Assembly: GCA_033764315.1 (NCBI GenBank)
Contig: JANRJA010000035.1
Span: 1 to 39,253, forward strand
Direction of reading: 5' to 3'
Length of the DNA: 39,253 bases
Source of the DNA: Oculatellaceae cyanobacterium bins.114
GTDB lineage: Bacteria; Cyanobacteriota; Cyanobacteriia; Elainellales; Elainellaceae
Part shown: positions 8,058 to 28,318 of the stretch, in pieces
How positions within the stretch are numbered: the stretch's first letter is position 1
Layout: each line of letters starts with the position of its first letter
The notes under the pieces: model-generated
Database searches by the model: none
The model's input: the letters and a program-made list of their open reading frames with translations, nothing else
Told to the model about the DNA's origin: nothing
Made by a program: the position numbers and the translations under genes

Positions 8058-10958
8058 CTATGCATCTAAAAGATGCCGAATGGTCGCCACCAGTTGCTTG
8101 AGTTTCACAGGCTTTGCAAGATAGTCGTTGGCTCCTGCCTTTAAACAGCGATCGCGATCGCCCTCCATCGCCAAAGCCGTCAAAGCAATAATTGGAATAT
8201 TGGCTAAATGGAGATCTTGACGGATAGTTTGAATAGCGGTTAGACCATCCACTCCTGGCATTTGAATATCCATCAAAATTAAATCAGGACAATGCATTTG
8301 GGTCAGGTCAATCGCTTCCTGTCCATTTCTAGCAATCAACATCTGATAATCATGCACCTCTAAATAACTAGAGAGCGTATCAATATTACCCTGGTTGTCT
8401 TCTGCTAACAAAATAATGGGGCGATCGTCTACAAATACTTGCTCTGTCGATCGGGAGGTCAGTACTTCAGATGAAACAGTGCAAGTTTGCTTGTGATATA
8501 TGTCTGTTGACAAAGTAGGGAATACCATCTCTTGATGGCTGGAACGGTAGGGTAATCGCACCGTAAAACAACTCCCCTGACCTAACTGGCTCCTGAGGCT
8601 GACAGAGCCTCCGTGAAGTTCAACAATTTGTTTCACCAGAGTCAATCCCAATCCGGTGCCTTCATAGTGACGATTGAGGCTGCTATCAATTTGCACAAAG
8701 GGGCGGAATAGTTTCGTTTGATCTTCTGGGGCGATACCAATACCCGTATCAGTTATAGAAAACAGAATCCAGTGGTCAACAACCAAGTTCTCTGAATGCT
8801 GGCTCTTCTCTAAAAGGGTATCTTCAGGGCTATCAGGAATGTTTGGCGGATCACAACTCGACTTTTGAATCGTCACTTCAAGCGTAATTTGACCGCAGGC
8901 AGGCGTAAATTTAACAGCATTATTGAGCAAATTGATCAGCACTTGTCGGATTCGACGCTCATCTATCTCAATCGCACCTAAGTTTGGGGGCAAAGACGTA
9001 ATGAGCCGAATCTGTTTTTTAAGTGCATCTTGTCTGATAAATACAAGACTAGAAGCACAAAGATGGTCAATCGAAACTGTAGAAATATCTAACTCTAGCT
9101 TGCCAGCTGAGATTTTTGAGACATCTAAAATGTCATTAATCAGTTGCAGCAGATGTTTCCCACTGTTAGAAATAACCTCAACATATTGATGTTGTTTGGC
9201 GTTGAGTTCCCCAAATATTTCTTCCTTTAGGGTTTCAGACATGCCTAAAATAGCTGTCAATGGGGTTCGCAATTCGTGGCTCATATTGGCGAGAAACTCG
9301 TCTTTGAGGCGGGTAGCACGGGCGAGTTCTTCGTTGGTGCGTTGCAGTTGGGCTTCTGATTCTTTGCGATCGCTAATATCACGCACAAAAAAGACCACTT
9401 CATCATTTCCGCAAGGGGCAACGCGCACCTCTTCGTAGTGAGGTTTGTCCTCTAACCAAATTTGTTGTTCATAACTCTGCACAGTCTGAGTTGCAAGAGC
9501 CTGTTGCATAGCATCATATTGAGTCTTGGCGTGAACGCCTGAACCATTTGAAGCTAACCCTTCAAAAATACTTTTGCCAATCACTTGAGCAGGCTCCACC
9601 ATATTGTTAGGCTGGGATGTTAAAAAATCAACATATTGACCGTTGCGATTAACCCGAAACACTAAGTCGGGTAACGCCAATAGTGTGGCTCGTGCCCTTT
9701 CTTCGCTGCGTTGTAGAGCCTCTTGAATGGCTTTGCGATCGCTAATATCCATTGCAATTCCAAATAGTCGATTCACATGTCCTGTTGAATTGCAACTGAC
9801 TTCTGCTTTCGCAAAGATATACCCAGACGAACCATCAGCTCGGATGATCTTGAGATCAGTGGCATAAGGTTCCCCATACTGAATGGCTCGATCGACTAAG
9901 TTGATAAAGTGTGATCGATCATGCGGTGGAAAATAATTTTGAATCAGTTGTTCATAGGTTGGTGCAGCCTCGTCTGGATTTAGCCCAAATATATTAAAGA
10001 TCTCAGCCGACCAAGCTAGTTCTTTCGTTTGCACATCTAACTCCCAACTGCCCAGCCGAGCCACCTGTTGCGCTTCGCGCAAGCGAGCCTCACTCTGTTG
10101 CAAAGCCGCAGTTCGTCGCTCTACCCGCTCTTCCAAGTCGCGGTTTAGTTGTTGCAGTGTAGATTCAGACCGTTTGCGATCGCTAATATCGAGATGAGTG
10201 CCGATCATCCGCAAAGGGTTGCCAGCCTCATCCCATTCCACCACCTTGCCCCGTGCCAACACCCAAACCCAGGTGCCCGACTTGTGACGCATCCGCATTT
10301 CGCATTCATAGACCTGAATTTCTTGGCTAAAGTGTTGTTCCAGTAAAAGATTTGCTTTTTGCAAGTCTTTAGGATGGGTATTATGTCGCCACGTTTCAAT
10401 CCCAATCGGTTCTAGTTCTTGCAGAGTATAGCCAATCATCTCTGCCCAACGGTCATTAAACGTTACAGTTCCAGTTTGAACCGACCAATCCCATAAGCCG
10501 ATTCCCGATCCTTCAATCGCGAGTTGCAAACGTTCTTTGGTTTGATCAAGTTCAAGGGTGGCTTGTTGACGCTCCACCCGAATCCGAGCATCTCGCACTT
10601 CTCGCCGCACGGCCTCTGGCAATCGGGTTAAGTTTCCCTTCATCAGGTAATCATGAGCACCCGCTTTCATCAATTCCACGGCCAATGTTTCCCCAATCGT
10701 GCCTGATACAACGATAAAGGGAATATCGAGTTGACTGTGCTTTAAAATCTCCAAAGCCGTTGGGGCATCAAATCCGGGTAGCCGATAATCTGAAATGAGC
10801 ACATCCCACGAGCGGTAGGGCAACATTGTAAGCAGGGCGTCAGCCGTTATCACCCGCTCCCAAGTGACATCAAAGCCACCTCGACGCAGTTCTCGGAGCA
10901 CTAACAGGGCGTCGTCTTCCGAGTCTTCAACAATCAGGACGTTCAGCGGCTCATTCAT
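8058..10958 (-). CDS. Hybrid histidine kinase REC-PAS(x3)-HisKA-HATPase-REC
   Basis: N-terminal REC (VEDSEDD, ISDYRLP, DYLMK); H-box MSHELRTPL; N/G/F boxes; C-terminal REC LMDIQMP. Confidence 0.95.
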   Translation of the reverse strand: MNEPLNVLIVEDSEDDALLVLRELRRGGFDVTWERVITADALLTMLPYRSWDVLISDYRLPGFDAPTALEILKHSQLDIPFIVVSGTIGETLAVELMKAGAHDYLMKGNLTRLPEAVRREVRDARIRVERQQATLELDQTKERLQLAIEGSGIGLWDWSVQTGTVTFNDRWAEMIGYTLQELEPIGIETWRHNTHPKDLQKANLLLEQHFSQEIQVYECEMRMRHKSGTWVWVLARGKVVEWDEAGNPLRMIGTHLDISDRKRSESTLQQLNRDLEERVERRTAALQQSEARLREAQQVARLGSWELDVQTKELAWSAEIFNIFGLNPDEAAPTYEQLIQNYFPPHDRSHFINLVDRAIQYGEPYATDLKIIRADGSSGYIFAKAEVSCNSTGHVNRLFGIAMDISDRKAIQEALQRSEERARATLLALPDLVFRVNRNGQYVDFLTSQPNNMVEPAQVIGKSIFEGLASNGSGVHAKTQYDAMQQALATQTVQSYEQQIWLEDKPHYEEVRVAPCGNDEVVFFVRDISDRKESEAQLQRTNEELARATRLKDEFLANMSHELRTPLTAILGMSETLKEEIFGELNAKQHQYVEVISNSGKHLLQLINDILDVSKISAGKLELDISTVSIDHLCASSLVFIRQDALKKQIRLITSLPPNLGAIEIDERRIRQVLINLLNNAVKFTPACGQITLEVTIQKSSCDPPNIPDSPEDTLLEKSQHSENLVVDHWILFSITDTGIGIAPEDQTKLFRPFVQIDSSLNRHYEGTGLGLTLVKQIVELHGGSVSLRSQLGQGSCFTVRLPYRSSHQEMVFPTLSTDIYHKQTCTVSSEVLTSRSTEQVFVDDRPIILLAEDNQGNIDTLSSYLEVHDYQMLIARNGQEAIDLTQMHCPDLILMDIQMPGVDGLTAIQTIRQDLHLANIPIIALTALAMEGDRDRCLKAGANDYLAKPVKLKQLVATIRHLLDA

Positions 10959-10961
10959 AGC

Positions 10962-11387
10962 TTACAATCCTTCTGGTAATGGCTGATTAATCAATGCCCA
11001 ATACAACCCCAATTGGCGCACTGCCTCAGTGAACTGGTCAATATCAACAGGCTTTCTAACGTAACTATTGGCTCCTAAGCTATAACTCTCAACAATATCG
11101 CGCTCTTCACTAGAGGACGTGAGAATGACTACTGGCAGAAGATGGGTTCGCTCGTTGGCTCGAATCTGTCGTAAGACCTCTAGTCCATCAATTTTGGGTA
11201 GTTTTAAGTCTAGAAGTACAACAGCTGGTAGCGGCTCAATATTAAACACCATTTGTAATGCCTCTTCACCATTTCGAGCGATGAGAATTTCATTGAGGAC
11301 ATTGCCTCGCCGCAATGCTCGGAGAGTCAGTCTCTCATCATCAGGGTTATCTTCAACCAATAGGATTACCCGTAGAGAAGTCATCAT
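10962..11387 (-). CDS. Single-domain response regulator, Rcp1-like (phytochrome-associated type)
   Basis: [28 protein letters not shown]...SY.LGANSY..KP and a C-terminal YW motif. Confidence 0.93.
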
Positions 11388-14300
11388 TTAAGCTCCTGTC
11401 CTGATAGATGCATGAGGTACGGTGAAATAAATGGTTGCCCCTTGTTCTATGGCTCCTTCAGCCCAGACCCGCCCCCCATGACGATGGATCGCGCGTTGAA
11501 CGGTAGCTAAGCCAATGCCCGTACCCGGAAATTCATGGGTGTTGTGTAAGCGTTGGAAAACGCCAAAGAGCATGTTGGCATACGCCATATCAAAGCCTGC
11601 TCCATCATCACGGACAAAATAAGTGGGTTGCTCTTCCAGTTGAATGACTCCAAATTCGATGTGAGCGGTGGTGTGGTGACTGGTAAATTTCCAGGCATTT
11701 TGCAACAGGTTAGTGAGAACAACCCGCATCAGTGTGGCATCACCAGAAACAATCACCTCCGGGGCAATCACAGTAGTCACTTGTCGTTCTGGATGGGCTG
11801 CTTGTAGTTCATTAATATGTTCTTGAACCAACGCACTAAGGTTGACAGAGTTATACTGCATCTCAGAGCGAGACACCCGCGATAGGCGTAACAGGTCATC
11901 AATTAACATTCCCATCCGACCAACATTATGACGGATGCGATTAAAGTAGTCTTTGCCTTCTTCGTTAAATTGCTCTCCATAATCTTCTAGTAAAGCTCGG
12001 CTAAAGCCGTCGATCGCGCGGAGTGGCGATCGCAAATCGTGAGAGACAGAATAGGCAAACGCTTCTAGCTCTCGATTAGAAGCTTCCAGTTGAGCTGTGG
12101 TTTGCAGCAGAGTAAGCTCTGCTTGTTTCCGATCGGTGATATCAAAGTTAATGCCAATCATGTGTTGGGGTTCACCTTGCGGATTGCGTTGTACCAGAGC
12201 ATAGGCTTTGATAAAGCGAATGGTGCCATCGGGATGCACCACCCGAAATTCGGGATCGTAATCCTTTTCACCTACCAGAGCTTTTTGAATCGCGGATTCG
12301 GCAAATGGACGATCATCGGGGTGCAAGCTATTTGCCCAGGCATCATAGATATTGGTGAACTGGTCAGAGGTGATGCCATAGAGTTCATACATCCGGTCAT
12401 CCCAGGTGAGAATGTTTTCTGTGACGTTCCAATCCCAAATGGCGATCGCCCCAGACTTTAAAGCCAGAGCCAGACGATCCGAAAGATTCTGCAATTCTTC
12501 TTCTGCGTGCTTGCGCTCAGTAATATCCAAAACAGTGCCAACCAAGTGAGTTGGCTGACCCATTGCATCGACAACCAACTCTCCGCGTGCCTGGACATAT
12601 CTCAACGTCTCATCGCAGTGATAAATTCGGAACTCAATCTCATAGGAGTTAGCCGTTTCAATCGTGGTTTGCACGACATGTTGATGAGGGTCGCGATCGT
12701 CAGGATGAACCTGCTGCTGAAGTTCTTCAAAACTCGGCGGCCCCATTGCCAGGTCACGTCCAAAAATGCGGAACACTTGATCAGACCAGGTGATTTGCTC
12801 AGTTCGCAAGTCAAATTCCCAACTGCCCAACTGGGCAATGCGCTGAGCCGTTTTTAGGTGAGCATCATTTTTGCGGAGAAGTTCTTCGGCTTGTTTTCGG
12901 TCGGTAATATCGCGAGCCGCTGCATAGATTAAGTTATCGTAGGGGCGAGAATACCATTCAATATAGCGATAGGTGCCATCTTTACAGCGATAGCGATTGA
13001 CAAAGGCCAGTATCGTCTCTTGCTCACTGAGAGTGGCGATCGCCTCCAGGGTTGACGCGAGATCATCCGGATGGACAAAGTCTAGGAACTGCTGTCCTTC
13101 GAGTTCTTCAATGGAGTACCCCAAGATCGTCTCCCAAGAGCGATTGAGACGACGGAAATTGCCTTCAATATCAGCAATACACAATAAATCCAATGCCACA
13201 TTAAAGAATCGTTCTATTTCTTCTTTAGCGTGGTTGAGTTGTTCTTCCGTTTGTTTGGTTGGGGTGATGTCGATATGGCACCCGATCAACCGTAGGGGAT
13301 TGCCTGCCTCGTCCCATTCGATTACCCGTCCTGTGCAGATTACCCAAACCGTAGAGCCATCTTTGTGGCGATATCGTAGCTCGTTGTAATAGGGAATCGT
13401 TCCGTGGCTCTGGACATGGTTTGTGTAACTGGTTGTGGCCTTGGGCAAATCTTCCGGAAAAATCAACTGCTTCCAGGTTTCAGGGGAGTTCAAAAGTTCA
13501 TGATCGGCATACCCAAACATCTTTTTAAAGCCAGGGCTAATGTATTGCTGGTGGTTCACCAGATCAGCATCCCAATATCCCGCTAGAATCGTGTCAAGAA
13601 TGTTTTCTAGAAGGTGCAGTTCTCGACGAGTTTGTTCAGCTTGTAAGCGTTCGGCCTCAGCTTGTTTGCGATCGCTAATATCAGTGTGGGTGCCCAACAT
13701 GCGGAGTGGTTGCCCGTTGGCATCCCACGTCACAATTTTGCCCAATGAGAGAATCCACTTATAGTCACCTGTTTGGGTGCGTTGGCGAAATTCCACCTTG
13801 TATTCTGGAAGAAGGCCTGCCAAGTAGTCTTGATAAACCTGACCCACTCTTGGGCGATCGTCGGGGTGCAACCGCTCTATCCACTTAACGTTCGTTTCCT
13901 GAAACGTAGCTGGATCATAGCCCAACATCGTGGCATATTCAGGCGTCACGATGGCTTCTCCCGTTTGCAGGTTGAGGTCATAAAGTCCCTGGTTAGCAGC
14001 CTCTAACGCTAGACGCAACCGTTCTTCATTAATTAGGAGTCGTTGTTTATCTTGAATTCGTTCCTGGGCATTGGCGATCGTTTGCCCCATAACGCCCAAA
14101 AGCCTTTTCATCTCATCGTTCCAGGTCATTGCATGGCTAAAAGAGGCAAATCCCATAAAGCCTGTGACCATTGATTTTTCAACGATAGGAACAGACAACA
14201 CAGCTCTCAGGTTAAATTGTTGCAAACCCGCTTGATCAAGCAATGCTTCAGCGGGTAACTCTGTCACATCAGGCACATAAACAATGTCTCGCTGCTTTAA

Positions 14301-16517
14301 CCTGTTAGTAGACCAAGGAAATGCCTCCATAGGAATTGACTGGGCGATCGCTATTTGTCGCAGGCAGCCCGGTTTGCTCCATTCGTGAGTCATGCTCATC
14401 GTTGGGGCATCTGTGTCAAATTTAAACAGGAAGCTGTGATCAACCTGAGTGATTTCCCCAATCAGTTGCAGGGTGCGTTCAATCTCAGTATTTAAATCGG
14501 CTGGGCTGAGATCCACAAACCGACTGGTGATTTCAGCAATCAGTTGGTTAAAGTCTCGCTGAATTTGCAGGGCTTGCTCGGTGGCTTTGCGATCGCTAAT
14601 ATCTGTAATCGTACCCACATAACCCACGATTTCCCCAGAGCCGCCTCGCTCTGCCACGGCTTGACCCAATACCCAGGTCACTTGCCCTGTGGCATTTTGA
14701 AACCGATATTCTAGAGAAAAGGGGCGATTTGCCCGAATCGCGATATTCCATTCTGTGGATACCAAGTCTCGATCATCGGGATGGATGCCATTGACCCAGC
14801 CAAAGCCTGTAGCTTGTTCTGGATGAAGTCCTGCAATTTGGCACCAGCGTTCATTAACATAGAGACAACGCCCATCGGTATCCGTTTGAAAAATCCCCAC
14901 AGGAGCCGTTTCAGTCAGCGTTAAGTAGCGTTGCTCACTAGCCCGCAAACTGGCTTCAATCTCCTGTCGTTTGGTTAACTCTGCCTGCGCCTGCTGATAC
15001 ATGGTTGCCTGCTGAATGGCGATCGCCAATTGAGTTGCGACATGTTCTAGCAGTCCTAATTCTTTAGACAGCCAATCACGTGGCTGGTCTGTCTCGATCG
15101 CACTCAACAGACCCCACAAGCGTTCACTGGTGCAGACAGGAACCAATATTTTTGCCCGCATGTGTAGATTTTGTAACAATTGGCGATGACAGGTTGTCAT
15201 CGGGGCTGTTTCAATATCTGATACCACGCGGATTCGCCCTTGTTGATATGCCTCTATCCAGTCGGTGGTAAAGCAGGGATCGTTCACTCTCTGACCCAGA
15301 TAAGACGGGCGTGAATCTACCTTACTCTCGGCGACTCCAACACTAGTTCCATCTGCCTCTAGCCACCAAATCACAACTCGGTCGCAGTCCAAGAACGATC
15401 GCACTGCCTCGACAGCCGTATCCAAAATCTCTGGCAAGTTTAAAGAAGCTCGAATCTGAGAGGCGATCGTCGCCATCACTTGTTCTTGCTCTGCCCTTGC
15501 CCTTAAATCAGCGGTGCGTTCTTCTACCTGCCGTTCTAATTCAGCGGTGTAATTTTCTAGCAGCTTGACCTTCTCAATTTCGAGCTGCAAGATCCTCTGT
15601 TCTAAAATATTAGATAATGTATATAACTCCAGTGGATTGAGGGCCTGCAATAAACTGGTTTGAGTCACAATGCCCAGCAATTTGCCTTGTTCACCCGTGA
15701 CCACTAACCGCCGAATCGATCGCTGCTCCATGACTTGCTGCACCACCATCAGCGAATCATTAGGGCTAACCGTAAACACAGGCGCACTCATCACCGCCTG
15801 ACTTTCAACGCTCTCTAAACTCAGCCCCAGAGATTGAAATTGAACAATATCCCGTTCGGTCACGATGCCTAAAGGGATCTGAACCTCCCTCCCATTTGCA
15901 TCGATTCGCGTTTCCACAATCAACACTGAGCCAACCCGATGCTCGACCATTCGTTGGGCGATCGCCAACATAGAAGTGGATAACTCAGCGCAAATGACGT
16001 TAGCGGTCATAACTTCTGACACCAGGCGCAACCGCAAGAGATCTACAGGGCGTGCCAGTTGTCGCAAGCTTTCGTGAGTGATGATCCCCAGAAGAGTCTG
16101 GTCTTGATCGAGGACGGGTAAATGGCGAATGCGATGCTGTTGGAGCAGATTCACCGCCGCAAAAAAATTGGTAAAGTCGGCTTGCTGGAGAGTCACGATT
16201 GGAAATGACATCACCTCTTGCACCGTCACAGCATCCAGCGATCGCTGCTGGACACAGAGGCGCACGACATCACTTTCTGTCAAAATGCCAATTATTTCTC
16301 CCCTCTCAATCACTAATACACAACTCGATCGGGCTTCTTGATGGACGTTGTTTAAAGCATCATTGCTCTTATTGGTCGTACAAATAGCTCGAACCCTGCC
16401 CATTTGAGCGATCGCCTCTGTCACTGTTGTATTGGGTGAAACCAATAACGCTTCTCGAACGATCGCAGATTGCAAATCGGCTGAAGTAAGGGGCATTGAA
16501 GCGGTCATCATAAGCAC
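11388..16517 (-). CDS. Histidine kinase CBS(x4)-GAF(DXCF CBCR)-PAS-GAF-PAS(x5)-HisKA-HATPase (Cph1/BphP-type kinase core)
   Basis: CBS motifs (IRHLPV, GIVTERD); GAF with DPCF and CH; H-box FAYSVSHDLRSPLR; FQRLH..EFPGTGIGLA. The true start may be ATG 16511 or 16508. Confidence 0.93.
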   Translation of the reverse strand: MLMMTASMPLTSADLQSAIVREALLVSPNTTVTEAIAQMGRVRAICTTNKSNDALNNVHQEARSSCVLVIERGEIIGILTESDVVRLCVQQRSLDAVTVQEVMSFPIVTLQQADFTNFFAAVNLLQQHRIRHLPVLDQDQTLLGIITHESLRQLARPVDLLRLRLVSEVMTANVICAELSTSMLAIAQRMVEHRVGSVLIVETRIDANGREVQIPLGIVTERDIVQFQSLGLSLESVESQAVMSAPVFTVSPNDSLMVVQQVMEQRSIRRLVVTGEQGKLLGIVTQTSLLQALNPLELYTLSNILEQRILQLEIEKVKLLENYTAELERQVEERTADLRARAEQEQVMATIASQIRASLNLPEILDTAVEAVRSFLDCDRVVIWWLEADGTSVGVAESKVDSRPSYLGQRVNDPCFTTDWIEAYQQGRIRVVSDIETAPMTTCHRQLLQNLHMRAKILVPVCTSERLWGLLSAIETDQPRDWLSKELGLLEHVATQLAIAIQQATMYQQAQAELTKRQEIEASLRASEQRYLTLTETAPVGIFQTDTDGRCLYVNERWCQIAGLHPEQATGFGWVNGIHPDDRDLVSTEWNIAIRANRPFSLEYRFQNATGQVTWVLGQAVAERGGSGEIVGYVGTITDISDRKATEQALQIQRDFNQLIAEITSRFVDLSPADLNTEIERTLQLIGEITQVDHSFLFKFDTDAPTMSMTHEWSKPGCLRQIAIAQSIPMEAFPWSTNRLKQRDIVYVPDVTELPAEALLDQAGLQQFNLRAVLSVPIVEKSMVTGFMGFASFSHAMTWNDEMKRLLGVMGQTIANAQERIQDKQRLLINEERLRLALEAANQGLYDLNLQTGEAIVTPEYATMLGYDPATFQETNVKWIERLHPDDRPRVGQVYQDYLAGLLPEYKVEFRQRTQTGDYKWILSLGKIVTWDANGQPLRMLGTHTDISDRKQAEAERLQAEQTRRELHLLENILDTILAGYWDADLVNHQQYISPGFKKMFGYADHELLNSPETWKQLIFPEDLPKATTSYTNHVQSHGTIPYYNELRYRHKDGSTVWVICTGRVIEWDEAGNPLRLIGCHIDITPTKQTEEQLNHAKEEIERFFNVALDLLCIADIEGNFRRLNRSWETILGYSIEELEGQQFLDFVHPDDLASTLEAIATLSEQETILAFVNRYRCKDGTYRYIEWYSRPYDNLIYAAARDITDRKQAEELLRKNDAHLKTAQRIAQLGSWEFDLRTEQITWSDQVFRIFGRDLAMGPPSFEELQQQVHPDDRDPHQHVVQTTIETANSYEIEFRIYHCDETLRYVQARGELVVDAMGQPTHLVGTVLDITERKHAEEELQNLSDRLALALKSGAIAIWDWNVTENILTWDDRMYELYGITSDQFTNIYDAWANSLHPDDRPFAESAIQKALVGEKDYDPEFRVVHPDGTIRFIKAYALVQRNPQGEPQHMIGINFDITDRKQAELTLLQTTAQLEASNRELEAFAYSVSHDLRSPLRAIDGFSRALLEDYGEQFNEEGKDYFNRIRHNVGRMGMLIDDLLRLSRVSRSEMQYNSVNLSALVQEHINELQAAHPERQVTTVIAPEVIVSGDATLMRVVLTNLLQNAWKFTSHHTTAHIEFGVIQLEEQPTYFVRDDGAGFDMAYANMLFGVFQRLHNTHEFPGTGIGLATVQRAIHRHGGRVWAEGAIEQGATIYFTVPHASIRTGA

Positions 16518-19500: not shown

Positions 19501-22090
19501 CAACTGGGAGCGGTTCTCCTTTGGCAATCTGTTCTAAGATGACAGTTTGAATTTCAAGGAGCAACTCAGCTTGCTTCCGCTGTGTCAGATTGGTGCTGGT
19601 GCCCACGATGCGATAAATTCGAGAGGCTGCATCTCGAATGGGGTTGAGAGTGGTAAGCCACCAGCTTGGTGTATCTTGAAAAACCAGGCATTCCTCATAG
19701 GTGATAGAAACTCCGGCTTGGACGCAATCTGTATAGTGCTGCCGAACCTTCTCTCCAGCAAGTTTTCCTTGCATCTGTGTCGTTGAGTACCCGGTTAACC
19801 GTTCAGCCGCCGGATTGAAGTCAACAAAACAAAAGTCTCCATTCTCTAAAACATCAACCGTAAAAATGACCTGCTCTACCCCTTCATAAATGCTGCGTAA
19901 AAATTGTTCGCGTTCTTCTATAGTGGCTTCTGCTTGCTTGATGGCGGTCAGGTCATGGGTGCTGATGATGACCCCGGCAATGGTGCCATCTAGCTCAATG
20001 TAGGGAGAATAGGTGATTCTGACAAATCGTTGTCTGTCGTTAACCCAGGTTTCCTCGTGCTGAATTTCACCCGCAATGCAGCGATCTAGACGTGGCTTTA
20101 CTAAGGTCTGAAAGACCGTTTCGCCCAGCAACTCGGCAATGGAGTGACCCACCATTTCGTCCCATTGTTTTGCATGCCAGTCTAGATATACCTGGTTAAC
20201 AAGCTGATAGACATAATTGCAATTGAGTAGAGCGATCCCGTCAGTGGTGGTAGAGACAACTCGCTCATATTGATGGAGAATCGCTTGAGTTTGTTTATGG
20301 CTGGTGATATCGACCCCAACCCCCAAGACGGCCAAAGTATTTTTGCCGGGTAAATTAATCGGATGCTTTTGCCACTGAAACCATTGCTCTTCTCCGCTCA
20401 TGGATACACTCTTCTCTTCAGGAATAAAGAGGGAGGTTTGATGGGTAATCACAGCCCGATTTTCTTGTAAAAACCGTGTAATCAGGGCTGGATCGGCATC
20501 AAAGTCTGTACCCGTTTTGCCGAGCAGGGCGTCAATTGTGGTGTGATAAGACTCAGCGATCGCCTTATTGACCAACAAAAAACAACCATTCCAATCTTTG
20601 ACAAAAATTTTGTTAGGGGTGGTGTCAATGATGGCTCTTAGCAAGGCTTGTTGTTGCTGTAACTGAAGCTCTGCCCGTTGGCGTTCACGCAATGCAGCTT
20701 GTTGTTCAGTAATATCGCGTGCCACCCACAACACGGTCTCAGGGGTTAAGGGAGAACATTTGGCATTGAACCATACTTCTGTCTCTTCAATGAGCAGGCA
20801 ATATATATATTCCTGAGTTTGCCCGGTTGCCAGTGCTTGTTGAATGCAGGTCAAAAATAGAGTCACCTGCTCATCAGGAAAAAAATCTTGGAGCGATCGC
20901 CCCAATAATTCTTGACTGGGGCGGTAGAGCTTTTTGGAGTGAGTGGAGGGAATTTTGAGATATCTGCCATCTCGATCTATCACTATCACCACATCGTCCA
21001 TCGCGGCAAAGAGACTCCGCAACTCCGTTTCAGAATTTCGCAGAGCCATTTCAGCTTGCTGGCGTGCCTTCAGTTCTTCCTGCAACTGCTGATGGGTGCT
21101 AGCTTGTTGAATAGCGATCGCCAACTGCACAGCAATCTCGTCTAACAGGGTTAGATCTCGGTCTCGCCAAGAGCGATAGTCACCACATTGATGCCCAATT
21201 AATAATCCCCAGAGCTGGTCAGACACCAAAATTGGCACGACCAGATTGGCTTTTACCTGATATTGCTCTAATAACGCTAGGTGACAACTGGAATAGCCAG
21301 CTCTGTAAACATTATCGATGGTGATTGTGCGCTCTGCCCCATGAAGGCGGGCAGCTTGGGCTTGAAAACAGCAATCATCAATCCGATTACCCAAAGCTGT
21401 TTTCCACCCCTCACCCACCGACTCTGCCACAATGATCCCGCTCCAGTCAGGTTGAAACTGGTAGACCAGAGTGCGATCGCACTGAAGGATATCCCGCAAT
21501 GCCGTTACGGTTGCATCCAAAACCTCTGACAAGTTTAAAGAAGCATGAATCTGGGTAGCCATTTGAGCGAGCAAGCGTTCTCGCTCGATCTGTTCTTGCA
21601 TAGCGCGAGTGCGCTCTTGAATTAGGAGATATCGCAAGCTTTCATCAGTGAGGACTCCCACCACCTTGCCCCGATCATTGACAACGGGCAAATGACGGAT
21701 GCTGTATTGGTGAAATAGAGCCAGGGGAACTCCTAAATCGGTCAGTTCGGAGATGTTGAGGGTTAAGACTGGAGCAGACATGACCTCCGCGATCGCCACT
21801 TCTGCTAGATTTTTTCCTAAACCACTCAGGCGCAGCAGATCCCGCTCGGTCATGATCCCCACCAGGCGGTCCCCTTCTTGCACCAATACACAACTCCGTT
21901 GAGCCTGCACCAACGGCAGGCGGAGTTTACTATTGATGTCGCTAACCAACAAACAGGCATTGTCCGCAGCCGCCATTTGGGCGATCGCCTCCATCACACA
22001 AGCTGTTGGTGCGATCGTCAGAGGATGAGAAGCGATCGATGCTAAAAGATCTTCGTTAGATACCGTAAATGCAGGGGTAGACATCATCAA
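16523..22090 (-). CDS. Hybrid histidine kinase CBS(x2)-GAF(DXCF CBCR)-PAS(x4)-GAF-PAS(x3)-HisKA-HATPase-REC
   Basis: CBS pair; GAF with DCCF and CH...QVKANLVVP; GSCG-type GAF; MSHELRTPL; C-terminal REC. The AGGAG RBS suggests ATG 22087. Confidence 0.93.
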   Translation of the reverse strand: MMMSTPAFTVSNEDLLASIASHPLTIAPTACVMEAIAQMAAADNACLLVSDINSKLRLPLVQAQRSCVLVQEGDRLVGIMTERDLLRLSGLGKNLAEVAIAEVMSAPVLTLNISELTDLGVPLALFHQYSIRHLPVVNDRGKVVGVLTDESLRYLLIQERTRAMQEQIERERLLAQMATQIHASLNLSEVLDATVTALRDILQCDRTLVYQFQPDWSGIIVAESVGEGWKTALGNRIDDCCFQAQAARLHGAERTITIDNVYRAGYSSCHLALLEQYQVKANLVVPILVSDQLWGLLIGHQCGDYRSWRDRDLTLLDEIAVQLAIAIQQASTHQQLQEELKARQQAEMALRNSETELRSLFAAMDDVVIVIDRDGRYLKIPSTHSKKLYRPSQELLGRSLQDFFPDEQVTLFLTCIQQALATGQTQEYIYCLLIEETEVWFNAKCSPLTPETVLWVARDITEQQAALRERQRAELQLQQQQALLRAIIDTTPNKIFVKDWNGCFLLVNKAIAESYHTTIDALLGKTGTDFDADPALITRFLQENRAVITHQTSLFIPEEKSVSMSGEEQWFQWQKHPINLPGKNTLAVLGVGVDITSHKQTQAILHQYERVVSTTTDGIALLNCNYVYQLVNQVYLDWHAKQWDEMVGHSIAELLGETVFQTLVKPRLDRCIAGEIQHEETWVNDRQRFVRITYSPYIELDGTIAGVIISTHDLTAIKQAEATIEEREQFLRSIYEGVEQVIFTVDVLENGDFCFVDFNPAAERLTGYSTTQMQGKLAGEKVRQHYTDCVQAGVSITYEECLVFQDTPSWWLTTLNPIRDAASRIYRIVGTSTNLTQRKQAELLLEIQTVILEQIAKGEPLPVVLNALICSMEGLLNQASCSILFCDDDGRLHHGCAPHLPSAYIQAIDGVAIGEGVGSCGTAAFRRATVIVSDIATDPLWQNYRELALEHGLAACWSVPVITSDGRVLGTFAVYHRDIYTPNKYDLIVVALAANIAGIAIERDQATQALEQLNRELEHRVEERTSALRSSEERWQLALRGANDGIWDWDLTTNKVFFSSRWKQMRGLADDAIGDSPDECISRMHPDDYDRVMAAVNDHFAGKTEFFEVEYRSRHKDGSYMWVLDRAQALRNESGQVVRISGSETDISDRKQAEAELSYSRDLREAVFNESADALFLVDPETLLTLDCNQRATQLFEVEDKADLIGIEGHTLQHHPFSDEELVQITVDMQCNGFWSRELEYVTHWGRIFWGNIAAKPITVAGRTLNLVRVTDISDRKRLEQEQRQLIAILEASTDYISMSDLEGNIIWNNTALKQICGLENNTIVRQRQIASYHPQWAVDLILNQGLPTAIATGSWIGESALLDVEGREIPLSQLILAHKSPQGDVEFFSTIARDMRTRKEYEQRLERTNAELLRATRLKDEFLANMSHELRTPLNAILGMSEGLQDEVFGTLNDRQKKAIATVERSGRHLLELINDILEVSKIAAGKLTLDISRVSIDHLCASSLVFVKQQAFKKQIQLTTVLPTDLGDIAVDERRMLQVLINLLNNAVKFTPEGGKVTLEVHHEPIEINLAERISVKRPEPPQRVPTDADAMCRSLQNYYLCISVIDTGIGIAAADQSKLFQPFIQLDSNLNRHYEGTGLGLTLVKQIVELHGGSVGLRSELGQGSCFTVRLPYNCRLEDKPTGVTLPSTANSHPSGDVTLGNTISGNINLNDVALKDCSSGEAIATLDENPLPNILLAEDNEANINTVSSYLGVKGYSVLVARNGQEAIALAQIHYPDLILMDIQMPGMDGLETIQMIRQNPSLAKTPIIALTALVMQGDRERCLNAGATAYLAKPVRLKELSQLIQTLLAL

Positions 22091-22329: not shown

Positions 22330-22443
22330 CTTGTGTGTACATCGTAGCTAGGGGAGAAGGGGAACCCACTCTAGTTTTAGCTCCCTCTCCCGCTCCGGGA
22401 GAGGGTTGGGGTGAGGGAGATTGGGGAAAGTTGCACATGGGGT
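22330..22443. repeat. Cyanobacterial REP/MITE-like debris
   Basis: CTTGTGTGTACATCGTAGC, hairpin CCCTCTCCCGCTCCGGGAGAGGG, TTGGGGTGAGGG, and a solo end GCACATGGGGT matching the 827-938 element. Similar sequence lies at 38903-38975. Confidence 0.6.
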
Positions 22444-22457: not shown

Positions 22458-23528
22458 TTATAAACGCAATGTAAACGTGGTTCCTCGGGGTTGATTGTTT
22501 TCTACCGTAATTTCTCCACCATGCGCTTCGATCGCCATCTTGACAAAGGCAAGCCCTAACCCTGTTTGGTTGATCCCCGTAATAAGTGTGCCAATTTCAT
22601 ATTTGTCAAATAGGCTATATTTTTTCTCTTCGCTCACGCCAGGTCCTTCATCCGTAATCCGGATCGTGGCACCCCCCACTTCAAGATAGTCTGCCTGTAA
22701 AACAATTTGGCTATTTGAAGGAGAAAACTTAATGGCATTAGATAGCAAGTTATCTAAAATGCGCCGAAAAACATTGGCATCGACATTTACACTGCCTCCC
22801 GGTTCAGGCAGTTGACTGGTTATAGTTAGGCGTTTTTGATTGGCCATCGCTTCAGCATCACTCAAAGCAGAAAGACAGAGGGCACGCAAATCAATCTCAG
22901 TGCGATAGAGAACCATCTTGTCAGCTTCTATTTTTGCCATTAACAACAAACTATCAATCTGCAATTGCAGGTGGTGGGCAGCGATCGCAATTTTGTTAAT
23001 TTTGTCTTGGCATTGTTCTGGTGACGCTTGCACAACTCGCAACAACTCAGTAGATAAAATAATACTGGTTAGCGGATTCCTTAAGTCATGCACCATCATG
23101 CTGACCATATCTTCTCGGACTTGTAATAGTGCCTGCAATTCATCGTGTTGTTGTTTAATTCTCAACATAGACCGCACTCTAGCGCGTAGCTCAGCACTGT
23201 GAGTGGGTTTGCTCAAAAAATCAGTTGCTCCCGCATCTAAACATTTGACCAAGTCTTCTTTGGAATTCAGTGCCGTGACCATCACAATGGGAGTATGCAT
23301 CCAACCTCGATTGGCTTTGATTCGACGGCAGGTTTCAATGCCATCCATTCCTGGCATCATGACATCCAGTAAGATCAGATCGGGTTGATGCATTTCCAAA
23401 AAAGACAGAGCTTGTATCCCGTTAGCTGCATAATGTAGCTGATAATTCTCAGTGATTAACATCGCCTCTAACACATCAAAATTTTCAAGCTCATCATCTA
23501 CAATCAAAATCGAAGGAGTGATATTCAT
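22458..23528 (-). CDS. Hybrid kinase REC-HisKA-HATPase
   Basis: IVDDE, LLDVMMP, FLSKP; H-box MVHDLRNPL; NLLSNAIKF; GLGL. Confidence 0.93.
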   Translation of the reverse strand: MNITPSILIVDDELENFDVLEAMLITENYQLHYAANGIQALSFLEMHQPDLILLDVMMPGMDGIETCRRIKANRGWMHTPIVMVTALNSKEDLVKCLDAGATDFLSKPTHSAELRARVRSMLRIKQQHDELQALLQVREDMVSMMVHDLRNPLTSIILSTELLRVVQASPEQCQDKINKIAIAAHHLQLQIDSLLLMAKIEADKMVLYRTEIDLRALCLSALSDAEAMANQKRLTITSQLPEPGGSVNVDANVFRRILDNLLSNAIKFSPSNSQIVLQADYLEVGGATIRITDEGPGVSEEKKYSLFDKYEIGTLITGINQTGLGLAFVKMAIEAHGGEITVENNQPRGTTFTLRL

Positions 23529-23542: not shown

Positions 23543-26500
23543 TTAAGAGTGAAGTAATTCTGAGATTTTGCTGACTAAATATCGTAACCGCACTGGCTTT
23601 GTTAAATATTCGTTAGCTCCAGCCTTGATGCATCGTTCGCGATCGCCCGACATTGCCAAAGCCGTTAACGCAATGATGGGAACATTAGCAAGTTCAGGTA
23701 AAGCCCGAATTTGAGCAGTTGCTTGGAGTCCATCCATATCTGGCATCTGAATATCCATCAAAATAATGTCTGGTTTGTGAAATATGGCTAATGAAACGGC
23801 TTCTAATCCATTGTTTGCCACAATCAGTCGATACCCATATCTCGCTAAATAATTGGAATAGGTTTCGATATTAGCTTGATTGTCTTCTGCTAATAAAATT
23901 AATGGTTGTCGATCAAAAGCCTCACTATCAGATACAGGGGTAGACTGCATAGATGGTTTGGTTAAGGCAGGTTGCAACCCATAGTTATCACTCATTTCGA
24001 GTACAGGCTGATAAGGCAAAACGACCGTAAATCGACTTCCCTGATTCACCTTACTTTCTACTTCAACTCGACCTCCATGCAGTTCAGTAATACGTTTGAC
24101 CAGTGCCAATCCCAGACCAGTTCCCGTATATTGACGGTTGAGTTTACTGTCGATCTGCACAAATGACTGAAACAGTTTAGGAATGTCTTCGGGTGCGATC
24201 CCAATTCCGGTATCGCTTACCGAAAAGTACATTAAATGTTGAGCATCCATTGTTGAAGCTTGAGTTTGAGTCCAAGCTTCTAACATGACAGACCCACCCT
24301 CTGGAGTGAACTTAATCGCATTGCTCAATAAGTTGATCAAGACCTGTCGCATCCGGCGATCGTCTACCCAAATGTCACTTAAAGAAGGAGAAATTTGAGA
24401 GTTGAGCTGAATATTTTTGTTATAAGCCATCTGCTTAACTAGACTTAGACTGGAACTGCACAGGTTTTGTATCGAGTGGGGGGCAAGGCTCAGCTCTAGT
24501 TTGCCTGCTTCAATTTTTGCCAGATCGAGAATGTCATTAATCAAGTCAAGTAAATGCCTGCCGCTATTCTCAATCGTGGCGATCGCCTTTTGTTGTTGAG
24601 CATTTAACGTGCCAAAGGCAGGTTCTTGTAATGCCTCAGACATCCCTAAAATGGCATTTAGGGGAGTTCTTAATTCGTGACTCATGTTGGCCAGAAACTC
24701 ATCTTTTAGGCGAGTGGCACGAGCCAATTCGAGATTGGCAATTTGTAATTGTTCATTAGTGGTTTGCAAATCTGTTTCAGTTCGCTGCCGCTCATCCAAC
24801 TCAGTATAGAGTTGTTGATACAGATCGGCCTGCTGAATGGCAATCGCCAACTGACCTGACAATTGTTGCAACAGAGCAATTTCCCACGCTTCCCAACGGC
24901 GTGAACAAGAACATTCATGGGCAATGAGCAAGCCCCAAACCCGCTTATTTTCTTGTTGCACAATCGGGACAACCAGTTTTGCCCGAATTTGCAGATTGAT
25001 CATAAACTGGCGAGCACAGTCAGCCATCTCAGTGCGATCGCAGTCTTCAATCTGATAAATAGCCCCCTTGATATATCGCTCAAAGCAATCCGAGGGTAGA
25101 GTTTCAGCAGAAAAAGATAAATTTAGGAGCGGTGGCCAGGGTTCTGCGATCGACTCTGCTACCACCTGTCCTGAGCCATCATCATTCAAACGATAGACCA
25201 AAATGCGGTCTGCCTGAATCGTTTGACGGACTTCTTCTACCGTAACGTTGAGAATAGCGTTAAGGTCGAGAGAATCGCGGATCCGTTTTAAGATGGAGAC
25301 CAGTAATTGTTCTTTCTCTAACTGTTGTTGCAGAAGCAGTTCAATCTGTTTGCGATCGTTGATGTCAGTCAATCGGACTAATCGAACTTGTTCACCTGCC
25401 ACCGAGACCGTTGTACCCGCGATATTTGCCCAAAGCGATCGCCCTTTTCGGGTCACGTATTCAACCTCTCGACTCCAAAATCCAGTTGCTGCCACTTCTG
25501 CACGAATAGTTGCGAGTTCTTCATCATTAAAAGGGTGTCGCTGCAACGTGTTTTCATTGATATTTAATAAGTCAGTTTTAAGCTCTACCTCAAACATTTC
25601 TACAGCACGTTCATTACAATCAACGATCAGTTGAGTTGTTGGATCAACCAAAAAAAGTGCATCGGTAGATTTGTTAAAAATGACATCTCTCAACTCACGG
25701 CTGCGTTTAAGCTCAACTTCTATTTGTTTGCGATCGCTAATATCTAACGCGGTGCCAAACAACTTTATAACGTGTCCCTGCGTATCATAAATCGCTTCTC
25801 CTCGTCCTTCGTGATAACGAATTGAACCATCTGCCAGAATTGCTCGATAGTCGATGTGATAGGGCATTCGGGTGGCGATCGCCTGTTCTATACAGTGCTT
25901 TAAGGTTTCCCGATCGTCTGGATGAATTTTTTGTAGATAGTCGTCATACAGCAGAAAAGACTGAGACGGGTCAAGCCCAAACATGCGATAGAGTTCTTCT
26001 GACCAATGAATGACTTGAGTTTGTACATCAAACTCCCAGTTGCCAATGTGAGCTACTCGTTGGGCTTCTAGCAGAGCGGCTTCACTGTCACGAAGTCGGG
26101 CTTCAGCTTGTTTGCGATCAGTGACATCGAGGTTAATACCAATCATCCGCAGCGGTTCACCCAATTCATTTCGCTCAATTAGGGCATGAGCTTGAATGAA
26201 ATGAATGGAGCCGTCAGGATGAATCACTCGAAATTCAGGATTGTATTCTCGTTCTCCCTGGCGGGCTTGCAGAGAAATAGTTTCAGCCACAATGCGATCA
26301 TCAGGATGAATCGCATGGAGCCATGCTTCATAGGCATTGTTAAAGTCCGATTGTTTAAGACCATACAATTCATACATCCGTTCATCCCAAAACACTTGAT
26401 TATGGGCAATGTCCCAATCCCAGATGCCAATTGCCGCAGATTTAACGGCTAACATCAATCGATCAGACAGATTACGCAATTGCTCTTCGATCTGTTTACG

Positions 26501-28318
26501 TTCTGTGATATTTCGTGAGATAACGGCGATCGCTATCGTTCCACCTGTGTGAGGGTGCTTAATCGGAAATGCACTATGCATCGCCGGAATCAACGCTTGG
26601 GTTTGAAAGTGGCGTAGCCTCACTTCACCTTGCCATGAGTTGCCTGCTGATAAGGCTTGTAATAGCGAGTGTTGTAACTCTCTCCAATCGTCTAAACCAT
26701 GAAAATCATCAATCACAAAGTTGGTAATATCACAGGCTAGATCTAGCCCAACCAGTTGTCGTCCTGCCAGGTTTAAGTAAGTAAAATGTCCTCCTGGAGT
26801 TGCTAGTGCAATAAAGTCAGTGCTGTTTTCAACAAGAGATACTAATTTTTGACGTTCGGCGATCGCTTGCTGCAACTGCTGATTGATCTGTTGCAGTTCA
26901 GATGTCCGTTGCTCTACTCTGGTTTCTAATTCTTGATTGAGTTGATGGAGGGCACCGATCGCCTCTTGCCGTTGCAACTCTGCCCGTTTTCGGCTAGTGA
27001 TATCTTCAACAACACTAATGAGATAAGGACTATCACTCCCAACCTCTTGGGCAAGTGACACGGTCAGGTTGAGCCAGATAATCGTTCGATCTTTGCGAAT
27101 ATAGCGTTTTTCTAAGCTATAGGTTGTTAGATTTCCCCTTAAAAGCTGATGCAGTTGTTGCAGATTGGCAGGTAAGTCATCGGGATAGGTAATTTCTTGA
27201 AACGTTAAAGATTTTAGTTCTTCAGACAAGTAACCCACAATTTCACAAAACCGTTGGTTAAATCGGAGTAAGTGTCCATCCGTCGAAGCATGGCAAATAC
27301 CCACAGCTGCTTGCTCAAAGGTAATCCGAAACCGTTCTTCACTCTGGTATAGAGAAAATTCGGTCTGTTTGCGCTCGATCGCCAATGCGGCTAGATAGAC
27401 CGCTATATTGACTACTTTCCAATCTTTGGCATTGGGAATATAAGCCTCTGGGTGATAAAACGCGAGAGTGCCTAACACCACCCTCGATTTAGAAAAAATT
27501 GGTGTAGACCAGCAGGATCGAAAGCCATATTGCACCATTAGATCGCGCCCAGCGTGCCACAATGGATCCGTCGAAATATCTGTCACCACAACAGGTTCCT
27601 GACGATAGGCTGCGGTTCCACAAGACCCTGCCTGAGGCCCAATCTCAATGCCATCGGCAATCGCTTGACTATAACTTTCTGGCAGACTAGGAGCAGATTC
27701 ATGCCAGAGACGTTCTCCTTTGAGTAACAAAACAGTCCCTACCAGCCCATTAGTTTGCCCCTCAAAAGCTGTAATCAGGCGATCGAGAATGTCAGACAGC
27801 GGTGCATCTAAAACCATCAATTCTAAAATTTGCCGTTGACTGTCAAGCAACCACTCTTGGCGATCGCCACTATGACGATCAAGCTCAGTGAGTTCACTTT
27901 GGGTTGAGAGCGAGTGCGCCGTGATCTGATCTAACTGGTTTTTGACCTGGACAGAGGCGATCGCTTTTTGAATGGTGATTGGTAATAGCATTGGAGAGCT
28001 ATCCTCTGCACCGTGAATCAGGTAATCAGTAGCTCCCTGCTGGATCAACGCCAAGACAACATCTTCTTCACCGACAGTGGCAACGACAATCGAGGGAATA
28101 TGGCGAGTTTTGAGTTCCGCCAAAAATGTAGAGATCGTGTTGTCAACGATGTCAACCGTGAAAACAACACAGTCAAAATCCTGATCCCGCAGCTTTGCTC
28201 TGGCATCAGCGAGAGAATAAGCCATATGACAGGCATAATGATGTCGCTTAGCCAGTTGCTGGATTGTCAATCGCACAGTTGCATTGTCCTCAATGAAGAG
28301 GATTTGAAGAGTCGGCAT
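23543..28318 (-). CDS. Hybrid histidine kinase pseudoREC-GAF-PAS(x5)-GAF(green/red-lineage CBCR)-HisKA-HATPase-REC
   Basis: Degenerate N-terminal REC; GSCG-type GAF; five PAS; GAF FSAETLP...DCA..F...RAKLVVP; MSHELRTPL; C-terminal REC. Confidence 0.93.
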   Translation of the reverse strand: MPTLQILFIEDNATVRLTIQQLAKRHHYACHMAYSLADARAKLRDQDFDCVVFTVDIVDNTISTFLAELKTRHIPSIVVATVGEEDVVLALIQQGATDYLIHGAEDSSPMLLPITIQKAIASVQVKNQLDQITAHSLSTQSELTELDRHSGDRQEWLLDSQRQILELMVLDAPLSDILDRLITAFEGQTNGLVGTVLLLKGERLWHESAPSLPESYSQAIADGIEIGPQAGSCGTAAYRQEPVVVTDISTDPLWHAGRDLMVQYGFRSCWSTPIFSKSRVVLGTLAFYHPEAYIPNAKDWKVVNIAVYLAALAIERKQTEFSLYQSEERFRITFEQAAVGICHASTDGHLLRFNQRFCEIVGYLSEELKSLTFQEITYPDDLPANLQQLHQLLRGNLTTYSLEKRYIRKDRTIIWLNLTVSLAQEVGSDSPYLISVVEDITSRKRAELQRQEAIGALHQLNQELETRVEQRTSELQQINQQLQQAIAERQKLVSLVENSTDFIALATPGGHFTYLNLAGRQLVGLDLACDITNFVIDDFHGLDDWRELQHSLLQALSAGNSWQGEVRLRHFQTQALIPAMHSAFPIKHPHTGGTIAIAVISRNITERKQIEEQLRNLSDRLMLAVKSAAIGIWDWDIAHNQVFWDERMYELYGLKQSDFNNAYEAWLHAIHPDDRIVAETISLQARQGEREYNPEFRVIHPDGSIHFIQAHALIERNELGEPLRMIGINLDVTDRKQAEARLRDSEAALLEAQRVAHIGNWEFDVQTQVIHWSEELYRMFGLDPSQSFLLYDDYLQKIHPDDRETLKHCIEQAIATRMPYHIDYRAILADGSIRYHEGRGEAIYDTQGHVIKLFGTALDISDRKQIEVELKRSRELRDVIFNKSTDALFLVDPTTQLIVDCNERAVEMFEVELKTDLLNINENTLQRHPFNDEELATIRAEVAATGFWSREVEYVTRKGRSLWANIAGTTVSVAGEQVRLVRLTDINDRKQIELLLQQQLEKEQLLVSILKRIRDSLDLNAILNVTVEEVRQTIQADRILVYRLNDDGSGQVVAESIAEPWPPLLNLSFSAETLPSDCFERYIKGAIYQIEDCDRTEMADCARQFMINLQIRAKLVVPIVQQENKRVWGLLIAHECSCSRRWEAWEIALLQQLSGQLAIAIQQADLYQQLYTELDERQRTETDLQTTNEQLQIANLELARATRLKDEFLANMSHELRTPLNAILGMSEALQEPAFGTLNAQQQKAIATIENSGRHLLDLINDILDLAKIEAGKLELSLAPHSIQNLCSSSLSLVKQMAYNKNIQLNSQISPSLSDIWVDDRRMRQVLINLLSNAIKFTPEGGSVMLEAWTQTQASTMDAQHLMYFSVSDTGIGIAPEDIPKLFQSFVQIDSKLNRQYTGTGLGLALVKRITELHGGRVEVESKVNQGSRFTVVLPYQPVLEMSDNYGLQPALTKPSMQSTPVSDSEAFDRQPLILLAEDNQANIETYSNYLARYGYRLIVANNGLEAVSLAIFHKPDIILMDIQMPDMDGLQATAQIRALPELANVPIIALTALAMSGDRERCIKAGANEYLTKPVRLRYLVSKISELLHS

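Follow-up and report, generated by a model that had tools for sequence, protein, structure and literature searches.

Genes and domains of the cluster

The subject of this report is a cluster of signal transduction genes on contig JANRJA010000035.1 of Oculatellaceae cyanobacterium bins.114. The window analysed is this entire contig of 39,253 bases, part of a genome of 6.6 Mb in 251 contigs, and from position 8058 to position 28318 it carries six long open reading frames (ORFs), all co-oriented on the minus strand and here called genes A to F (Table 1). Three of them, D, E and F, form a cassette of sensor kinase, free receiver and receiver-headed hybrid kinase that is conserved in order in many cyanobacterial loci and resembles the dpxABC operon of Fremyella diplosiphon. 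The closest named relatives at the cluster locus come from Tumidithrix (Pseudanabaenaceae), next to relatives from uncultured cyanobacteria.

A sequence-only reading of this DNA had described two tightly spaced blocks of genes, and ORFs and gaps agree with it: A and B are separated by 14 nt, and beyond a spacer of 367 nt genes C, D, E and F follow each other at distances of 5, 0 and 3 nt, which suggests translational coupling from C through F. The start codons of C and D are TTG/GTG with ATG codons directly after, and the C-D spacer is possibly 11 nt long, as the database copy of D has 1707 aa, its start being the ATG two codons further on.

Pfam searches, run on the complete proteins and on overlapping 140-aa tiles, gave for the six proteins together five kinase cores, seven receivers, 20 clear PAS domains plus a weak one in gene C (E 5e-4), six GAF domains, three of them of the cyanobacteriochrome (CBCR) type, and three CBS pairs, the same counts as had been read from the sequence. 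E-values as low as 1e-121 and ORFs as long as 1855 codons exclude chance. In the whole proteins no family beyond PAS, GAF, CBS, HisKA, HATPase_c and Response_reg was found at E <= 1e-3, and the absence of HTH, GGDEF, EAL, CheW and Hpt domains from the six proteins, claimed before, holds in the Pfam scans as well. H-box, N box and G box are intact in all five kinases, and the acceptor Asp, the Thr/Ser and the Lys are kept in six of the seven receivers. The seventh, at the N-terminus of A, is degenerate, with Thr at the aligned Asp position, His in place of Lys and a deletion of four residues, and is probably a pseudo-receiver.

Conservation of the D-E-F cassette

Among solved structures E matches the receivers of the Rcp1/BRR type (PDB 5brj, 2.7e-39; 5ic5, 3.5e-38; RcpB, 2e-23; Rcp1, 5e-21), and the kinase core of D has its nearest matches in bacteriophytochrome kinases of full length (8uph, 1.8e-29), which bears out the earlier suggestion of a Cph1-type kinase paired with an Rcp1-like receiver. 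E stands beside a phytochrome-type kinase, has an intact set of Asp60, Thr/Ser and Lys, and carries a C-terminal extension. As in the Cph1-Rcp1 and bacteriophytochrome-BRR systems (PDB 1i3c, 1k66, 5brj, 5ic5, 8avv), a receiver of about 140 aa with such an extension comes after a HisKA/HATPase kinase of the phytochrome type. Different from these systems, the sensor of D is made of CBCR GAF, CBS and PAS domains instead of PAS-GAF-PHY, and a third gene belongs to D-E-F, with a second receiver of cognate appearance at its head.

The order of these three parts was followed in two sets of loci; genomes and loci are cited below by G and L numbers. The close set consists of 24 loci round E homologues, four of them named (L002-L005) and 20 taken from genomes (L029-L048), with E 55-83% identical. 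In every one of the 24, E has a kinase core of the D type on one side and an N-terminal receiver of the F type on the other, and the three are strictly adjacent and co-oriented in 22, the others being L039, in which a gene is inserted, and L042, in which the kinase is divergent. The distant set consists of 60 loci with E 50-72% identical, chosen from 135 matches besides the window's own at 72% identity or less. New E matches at >= 75% identity were left out of it, and so were low-identity matches from G475, G540, G392 and G498 (second matches) and G302 (a third match), as well as those from G380, G587, G533 and G467 (second matches) and G364. In this set 42 loci hold the full triad, 11 kinase and E, four E and the F-type head, of which at least two are cut by a contig end, and three neither kinase nor head. 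Within the close set the three parts diverge together, from 83, 83 and 74% identity for E, kinase and F head down to 56, 58 and 46-53%.

What surrounds the three parts is variable. The sensors of the first gene may be CBS4-CBCR(-PAS), ethylene-receptor-like ETR1_N with PAS, CHASE3, MHYT-GAF, a lone GAF or PAS only, with CBS4-CBCR-PAS first genes in the window, Tumidithrix, two metagenome-assembled genomes (MAGs) and G080, and the number of PAS domains differs among orthologues. Behind the F-type head the third gene continues as PAS-kinase-REC (REC, receiver), GAF-GAF-kinase, HisKA_2 kinase, bare kinase or GGDEF-EAL. Two loci with E 80-83% identical to that of the window, L030:5195-8752 (G294) and L031:10268-14206 (G017), have a first kinase with ETR1_N (E 2.5e-34 and 4.3e-36) in place of CBS-CBCR; their third gene reads REC, GAF, GAF, kinase, with GAFs that share 40-45% identity with the CBCR GAFs of the window. 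In three further loci (L032:7347-9872, L044:10294-12180 and L035:11339-13831) GGDEF-EAL is fused to the F-type head or to the next gene. Such fusions in some cassettes mean that the family can end in c-di-GMP turnover.

In the genome of the window the cassette is single-copy, the next-best paralogues of its three parts being 37, 40 and 47% identical, and F-type heads are scarce (three other matches at E <= 1e-10). Since close paralogues are absent and F-type heads are scarce, the pattern seen across genomes reflects orthology and not chance adjacency of common domains. This bears on the view that the cluster is a pile-up of paralogues, produced by local duplication and domain shuffling, in which coupling is limited to the internal transfer of each hybrid kinase. 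Such a view would account for the near-identical kinase and receiver modules of A, C and F, for a CBS-CBCR head common to C and D and a GSCGTA-type GAF common to A and C, and for PAS numbers that vary between orthologues. However, local duplication cannot yield a D-E-F order that is conserved at the level of orthology across families, and the gaps of 0-5 nt suggest coupling in translation; we therefore give this view little credence.

Matches to E occur in 22 of 300 other genomes sampled over the phylum (E <= 1e-45) and in 114 of 400 sampled within the class (E <= 1e-40). Among its best 120 database matches E is 78-100% identical, the named ones coming from several cyanobacterial orders, and it is the most conserved part of the cassette, as would fit a protein with a conserved target of its own. 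This feature, together with the Rcp1/BRR type of E and the 11 distant loci that have kinase and E without an F-type head, speaks for a plain pair after the manner of Cph1-Rcp1, in which D signals only to E, be it the true output or a phosphate sink, and F is an independent hybrid kinase. Against it stands the F-type head that follows E in all of the close and in 42 of the 60 distant loci, irrespective of the domain behind it, and that is otherwise scarce in the genome. With the behaviour of helix alpha-1 of this head, described in the following, we regard the plain pair as rather unlikely.

Covariation of the kinase with both receivers

Does the kinase of D then fit one receiver or two? In 59 of the 77 loci that have both kinase and E, the kinase carries the pair 'ED' at positions +18/+19 from the phospho-His, as D does. 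In this class position 23 of E is Arg without exception (59/59), and the matching Arg is present in the F head in 46 of the 48 loci that possess one. The remaining 18 loci carry ER, TR, DR, KD, EQ, NE, KQ and others in the kinase, and in all 18 the Arg is missing from both receivers. Position 26 of E behaves in a similar manner, being Glu in 14 of the 18 non-ED loci and Arg or Lys in 54 of the 59 ED loci; in the window, alpha-1 of E has Arg23, Arg26 and Arg27. The F head thus tracks the residue pair of the kinase as E does.

The likeness of the two receivers is most marked in this helix. Overall E and the F head are 20-31% identical, no closer than E is to the other receivers of the cluster; in alpha-1 they are 22-56% identical, as against 17-22% for E and the other four receivers of the cluster. 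Such covariation is expected if both receivers dock on the same helix of the kinase, and suggests a single kinase serving two receivers.

The best solved match of the F head is LvrB of Leptospira (PDB 8vc9, 2.5e-12), which also has an N-terminal receiver before the kinase core; the similarity is modest. An N-terminal receiver before the kinase core is seen as well in the REC-CBCR-kinase 'dual sensor' 6oap, the best match of the CBCR GAFs of C and D. 6oap was considered as a prototype for the F head and dropped, as LvrB is the best match and 6oap is not among the matches at 1e-8.

Table 1. Positions in the window of the genes, domains and other elements discussed in the text
Feature	Position	Strand	Description
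Gene A	23543..28318	-	1591 aa: degenerate REC, GAF (GSCGTA type), PAS x5, CBCR GAF, HisKA-HATPase (His1214), REC (Asp1522)
Gene B	22458..23528	-	356 aa: REC (Asp55), HisKA-HATPase (His147)
Gene C	16523..22090	-	1855 aa: CBS pair, DXCF CBCR GAF, PAS x4, GAF (GSCGTA type), PAS x2-3, HisKA-HATPase (His1429), REC (Asp1786)
Gene D	11388..16517	-	1709 aa: CBS x4, DXCF CBCR GAF, PAS, degenerate (weak) GAF, PAS x5, phytochrome-type HisKA-HATPase (His1493), no receiver; first cassette gene
Gene E	10962..11387	-	141 aa: REC only (Asp60), Rcp1/BRR type
Gene F	8058..10958	-	966 aa: REC (Asp57), PAS x3, HisKA-HATPase (His561), REC (Asp897); third cassette gene
D kinase core	11412..12065	-	Glu1511-Asp1512 at +18/+19 from His1493
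F N-terminal receiver	10608..10940	-	conserved head of the third gene; alpha-1 Arg22, Arg25, Arg26
D CBS x4	15639..16457	-	two Bateman pairs; aligns closely with those of Tumidithrix and of one MAG
D GAF1	15015..15437	-	D residues 361-501; D-P-C415-F and C443-H; 6oap 7e-36, TePixJ 4e-27
C GAF1	21110..21535	-	C residues 186-327; D-C-C241-F and C269-H; 6oap 3e-41, AnPixJg2 3e-34, TePixJ 6e-31
A GAF2	24836..25267	-	A residues 1018-1161; C1101-A; 8k9o (RcaE) 5e-37, 7ckv 3e-34
A GSCGTA-type GAF	27374..27802	-	A residues 173-315
C GSCGTA-type GAF	19085..19477	-	C residues 872-1002
A N-terminal receiver	27959..28318	-	degenerate
GC-rich hairpin	22383..22405	-	perfect 10-bp stem without U tract, inside the B-C spacer
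Terminator-like hairpin	7180..7206	-	11 pairs, then a T-rich tail; best such site on the minus strand
128-aa ORF past F	7277..7663		no Pfam match; hydrophobic N-terminus, basic C-terminal part
Hybrid kinase outside the cluster	34710..37145	+	811 aa: PAS x3, kinase, REC
AraC-type regulator outside the cluster	31853..32794	+	with cupin domain
TRAP transporter genes	28973..30938		DctQ/DctM
Fusion protein	1239..3494		unusual 751-aa fusion of CBM20 starch-binding, GDSL lipase and DUF1796 papain-like domains

Relation to dpxABC

The dpxABC genes of F. diplosiphon encode the teal/yellow CBCR kinase DpxA, the single receiver DpxB and the hybrid kinase DpxC (PMC4752607, PMC13492139) and have been described as a colour-acclimation operon (J Bacteriol 2026; PMC13492139). 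According to the latter source, the operon is co-transcribed and affects pigmentation in an rcaE background, the arrangement is kept in 86 of 95 genomes examined, and the identity thresholds applied were >67% for DpxA, >=73% for DpxB and >52% for DpxC with PAS domains removed. DpxA is there a protein of ~54 kDa with one GAF and one kinase domain. In the papers found on dpxB, only dpx and a 'dpx-like' operon of Nostocales are described (PMC13492139).

Four loci of our close set tie the cassette to this operon. L039, L040 and L041 yield proteins bearing accessions that are listed as DpxA and DpxB (Table S2, PMC13492139), and the receiver of L038 falls within the 90% cluster of a listed DpxB. All four show the same gene order as D-E-F, and their mutual identities (67-78% for A, 81-86% for B and 55-79% for C) agree with the dpx thresholds. 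With dpxABC the window shares the order of CBCR kinase, single receiver and receiver-headed hybrid kinase, co-oriented and in the window with gaps of 0 and 3 nt, a first-gene GAF with DXCF and Cys-His, a varying count of PAS domains and the absence of an output domain. Compared with the four loci, identity amounts to 55-60% for the kinase of D, 59-60% for E and 39-51% for the F head. The remaining parts are unlike: the GAF of D is only 29-32% and the kinase-receiver part of F 25-28% identical to the counterparts, and D, with 1709 aa, four CBS, two GAF and six PAS domains, differs greatly from the 474-aa GAF-kinase DpxA.

The identities of the window proteins lie below all three dpx thresholds (67, 73 and 52%). 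In a tree of 25 receivers E belongs to a clade of 11 sequences (support 98/96), distinct from that of DpxB (98/99) and from one linked to CHASE3. The assignment of E as a DpxB orthologue was therefore dropped, in view of the 59-60% identity, the separate clade and ten accessions of the E family that are absent from Table S2. A plasmid collection that was searched with E for annotated Dpx records returned only proteobacterial and other non-cyanobacterial receivers of at most 61% identity. Judged by these comparisons of sequence, D-E-F is a part-by-part homologue of dpxABC, a sister lineage with a far larger sensor and not an orthologue. A match to an already characterised locus had been named beforehand as an outcome that would tell against a new system here; it has come half true, in that D-E-F agrees with dpxABC (PMC13492139) in gene order and core domains without being orthologous to it.

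Sensor domains

The CBCR-type GAFs of A, C and D, three as had been claimed, each contain the canonical bilin cysteine (C1101, C269 and C443, respectively), and their best PDB matches are all CBCRs; bilin binding is predicted for the three. Solved relatives of the domains in C and D are 6oap, TePixJ, AnPixJg2 and NpR6012g4 (E 3e-41 to 4e-27). Like the DXCF CBCRs (TePixJ, PDB 4glq/3vv4), GAF1 of D and GAF1 of C have the second, DXCF cysteine (C415 and C241) next to the canonical Cys-His; unlike them, the D orthologues of Tumidithrix and of one MAG have Cys-Tyr.

The CBCR GAF of A is, by its closest relative RcaE, of the green/red lineage of RcaE and CcaS (PDB 7ckv, 8k9o). In RcaE the protochromic triad consists of Glu217, Leu249 and Lys261, and the pocket also contains Phe252, Tyr227, Arg233 and His285 (bioRxiv 10.1101/2020.12.08.414581); the number 248 of the RcaE cysteine was deduced from Leu249 and Phe252. 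A keeps the equivalents of Glu217, Tyr227, Phe252, Lys261 and His285 as Glu1072, Tyr1082, Phe1105, Lys1114 and His1134. It departs from RcaE in Ala1102 for Leu249 and in a Tyr for Arg233, and differs further in the large hybrid kinase that contains it, which has no partners like RcaF/RcaC in its vicinity. Its S-D-C1078-F lies five residues out of register and was excluded from the DXCF count.

The other three GAFs are not CBCRs. The one at residues 670-817 of D is degenerate, and those of A and C with a GSCGTA (GSCGTAA) motif represent a shared GAF_2-type domain, with one weak solved relative, the uncharacterised sensor GAF 3hcy (1.3e-5). A relation of these two to methionine sulfoxide reductases was considered and dropped, this sensor GAF being the sole PDB match. 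A 66%-identical copy of the GSCGTAA-type GAF is found in the F-like protein of locus L029.

The CBS pairs had been taken for adenosyl sensors. The pairs are present, and one CBS domain of each contains the motif G-h-h-T-x-x-D, which we take to be the ribose-binding motif of CBS domains; their solved relatives are generic CBS proteins (E >= 2e-12). Adenosyl binding is plausible. The CBS4-CBCR head as such (D residues 1-520) is common among filamentous cyanobacteria, with 845 protein clusters at E <= 1e-30. Among the 120 listed of these matches it is 47-59% identical over almost all 520 residues and mostly part of hybrid kinases, from Microcoleus, Nostoc, Anabaena, Calothrix, Kamptonema, Leptolyngbya and others. 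In the papers found on CBS, cyanobacteriochrome and histidine kinase, a CBS-CBCR kinase architecture was not found apart from the legend of a catalogue figure.

Genes A, B and C beside the cassette

The sequence-only reading had proposed a phosphorelay that joins several wavelengths with energy charge and leads to an output encoded elsewhere. Sensing of colour and through the CBS domains remains plausible, as does a distant output. The six genes are not, however, one relay, and only D-E-F recurs: in the synteny comparison the six-gene set is repeated in none of the loci examined, and no orthologue of A above ~45% identity lies beside any cassette in the neighbouring loci examined. G017 and G294 have D-E-F alone, G080 has a CBS-headed, C-like hybrid kinase followed by D-E-F, and G008 has D-E-F followed by a CBS hybrid kinase and a B-like REC-kinase.

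A single phosphorelay of all six proteins, summing wavelengths and energy charge into one distal output, would draw support from the co-orientation and tight spacing of the genes, and from the near-identical sequence types of DHp/kinase and C-terminal receiver in A, C and F, by which these three may converge on one distal Hpt. Moreover, some cassettes have REC-kinases of the B type and hybrid kinases headed by CBS in their vicinity (L033, L034, L029). The loci with D-E-F alone, or at most with C before it, are contrary to such a relay, and so are the 367-nt B-C spacer with its stable hairpin and the degenerate N-terminal receiver of A. We consider a single relay very improbable. The region is a juxtaposition and not one machine, at most four and mainly three of the six genes travelling together. 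C is a hybrid kinase with CBS and CBCR domains that often accompanies the cassette, and A and B are lineage-specific additions.

Receivers of the B type, 54-62% identical, are present in REC-kinases or REC proteins near other cassettes (L033:14452-15711, L034:1836-2972, L038:14648-15799), which hints at a link of B-type receivers with hybrid kinases of the A/C/F type.

The hairpin in the B-C spacer is one of three copies in the genome of a small palindromic repeat with similar flanks, the others being on contigs C95 and C240. Downstream of F, the terminator-like hairpin sits 3' of a 128-aa ORF that comes after F. Rfam gave no matches across the whole window. Outside the cluster the window holds, among others, a hybrid kinase and an AraC-type regulator, both on the plus strand, genes of a TRAP transporter and an unusual fusion protein (Table 1).

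Output and proposed mechanism

The Hpt link needed for a multi-step His-Asp-His-Asp phosphorelay was not found by Pfam in the six proteins. The genome has 14 Hpt matches, all outside the cluster, which together with the lack of an output domain in the cluster makes an output encoded elsewhere plausible. One of them is a stand-alone protein of 109 aa (G000:C209:69015-69344; L028:1444-1773) that adjoins an RsbW-like HATPase_c_2 kinase and a REC-SpoIIE (PP2C) phosphatase, and this neighbourhood is a possible candidate for a partner-switching outlet of the many hybrid kinases of the genome.

We propose, with a probability that we put at roughly 0.55, that D integrates several inputs and phosphorylates both E and the head of F, that this head gates the kinase of F, and that F passes its phosphate to a distal Hpt. 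In this scheme D would sense light colour by its two-cysteine (DXCF) CBCR GAF, its four CBS domains would probably read an adenosyl ligand, and the six PAS domains would take further signals. D would autophosphorylate at His1493, and its phytochrome-type core would serve two receivers, E at Asp60 and the N-terminal receiver of F at Asp57. Once phosphorylated, the latter would gate F's own kinase, from which the phosphate would move to the C-terminal receiver and from there to an Hpt protein and an output, both encoded elsewhere, as it would from A and C. Co-transcription of the three genes would fit the small gaps between them.

Several observations weigh against this proposal. A scan of positions 7000-26999 for promoters and terminators was uninformative as to transcription units, with 16 promoter-like sites as compared to 28.8 expected and 17 terminator-like sites as compared to 19.1 expected. 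The distant loci that have kinase and E without an F-type head (11/60), next to those with neither (3/60), indicate that a plain kinase-receiver pair is also viable. In a genome of the same genus, G536, which is reported to be 100% complete, no E match was found at E <= 1e-40; the cassette is thus dispensable and variably present even inside the genus. As to the covariation, its classes may be a few old clades, with only three or four independent events, so that shared ancestry could mimic co-evolution, and F's own kinase is acidic at +18/+19 too. Finally, for dpxABC the phosphotransfer route and the output are not established (PMC13492139), and homology hence transfers little function.

A broader proposal, to which we would give slightly less than even odds, is that D-E-F belongs to a modular, phylum-wide cassette family of 'one kinase, two receivers', of which dpxABC would be one branch. 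In this family a kinase core of the phytochrome type would co-evolve with a free Rcp1-like receiver and with the receiver at the head of the next gene, sensors being swappable before the kinase and outputs, among them hybrid kinase, HWE-type kinase and GGDEF-EAL, behind the receiver head. Cyanobacteria encode dozens of CBCR kinases that have no obvious partner or output, and among three-gene modules of this shape dpxABC is to our knowledge the first backed by genetics. The core of the present cluster now takes its place in a wider family of cassettes, in which kinase core, free receiver and third-gene receiver head do not vary. D-E-F is in this respect a variant of the recently described dpx-type cassette; its CBS4-CBCR head is in itself common, and A, B and C are ordinary, lineage-specific multi-sensor kinases. 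The cluster also cautions against taking large clusters of kinases for single systems. The pair of Glu1511 and Asp1512 in D, as opposed to Arg23, Arg26 and Arg27 of E and Arg22, Arg25 and Arg26 of the F head, provides a hypothesis for the branching of signals by photoreceptor kinases that can be tested by mutation. If the modular view is true, the version of the cassette in the window would couple light colour with adenylate status.

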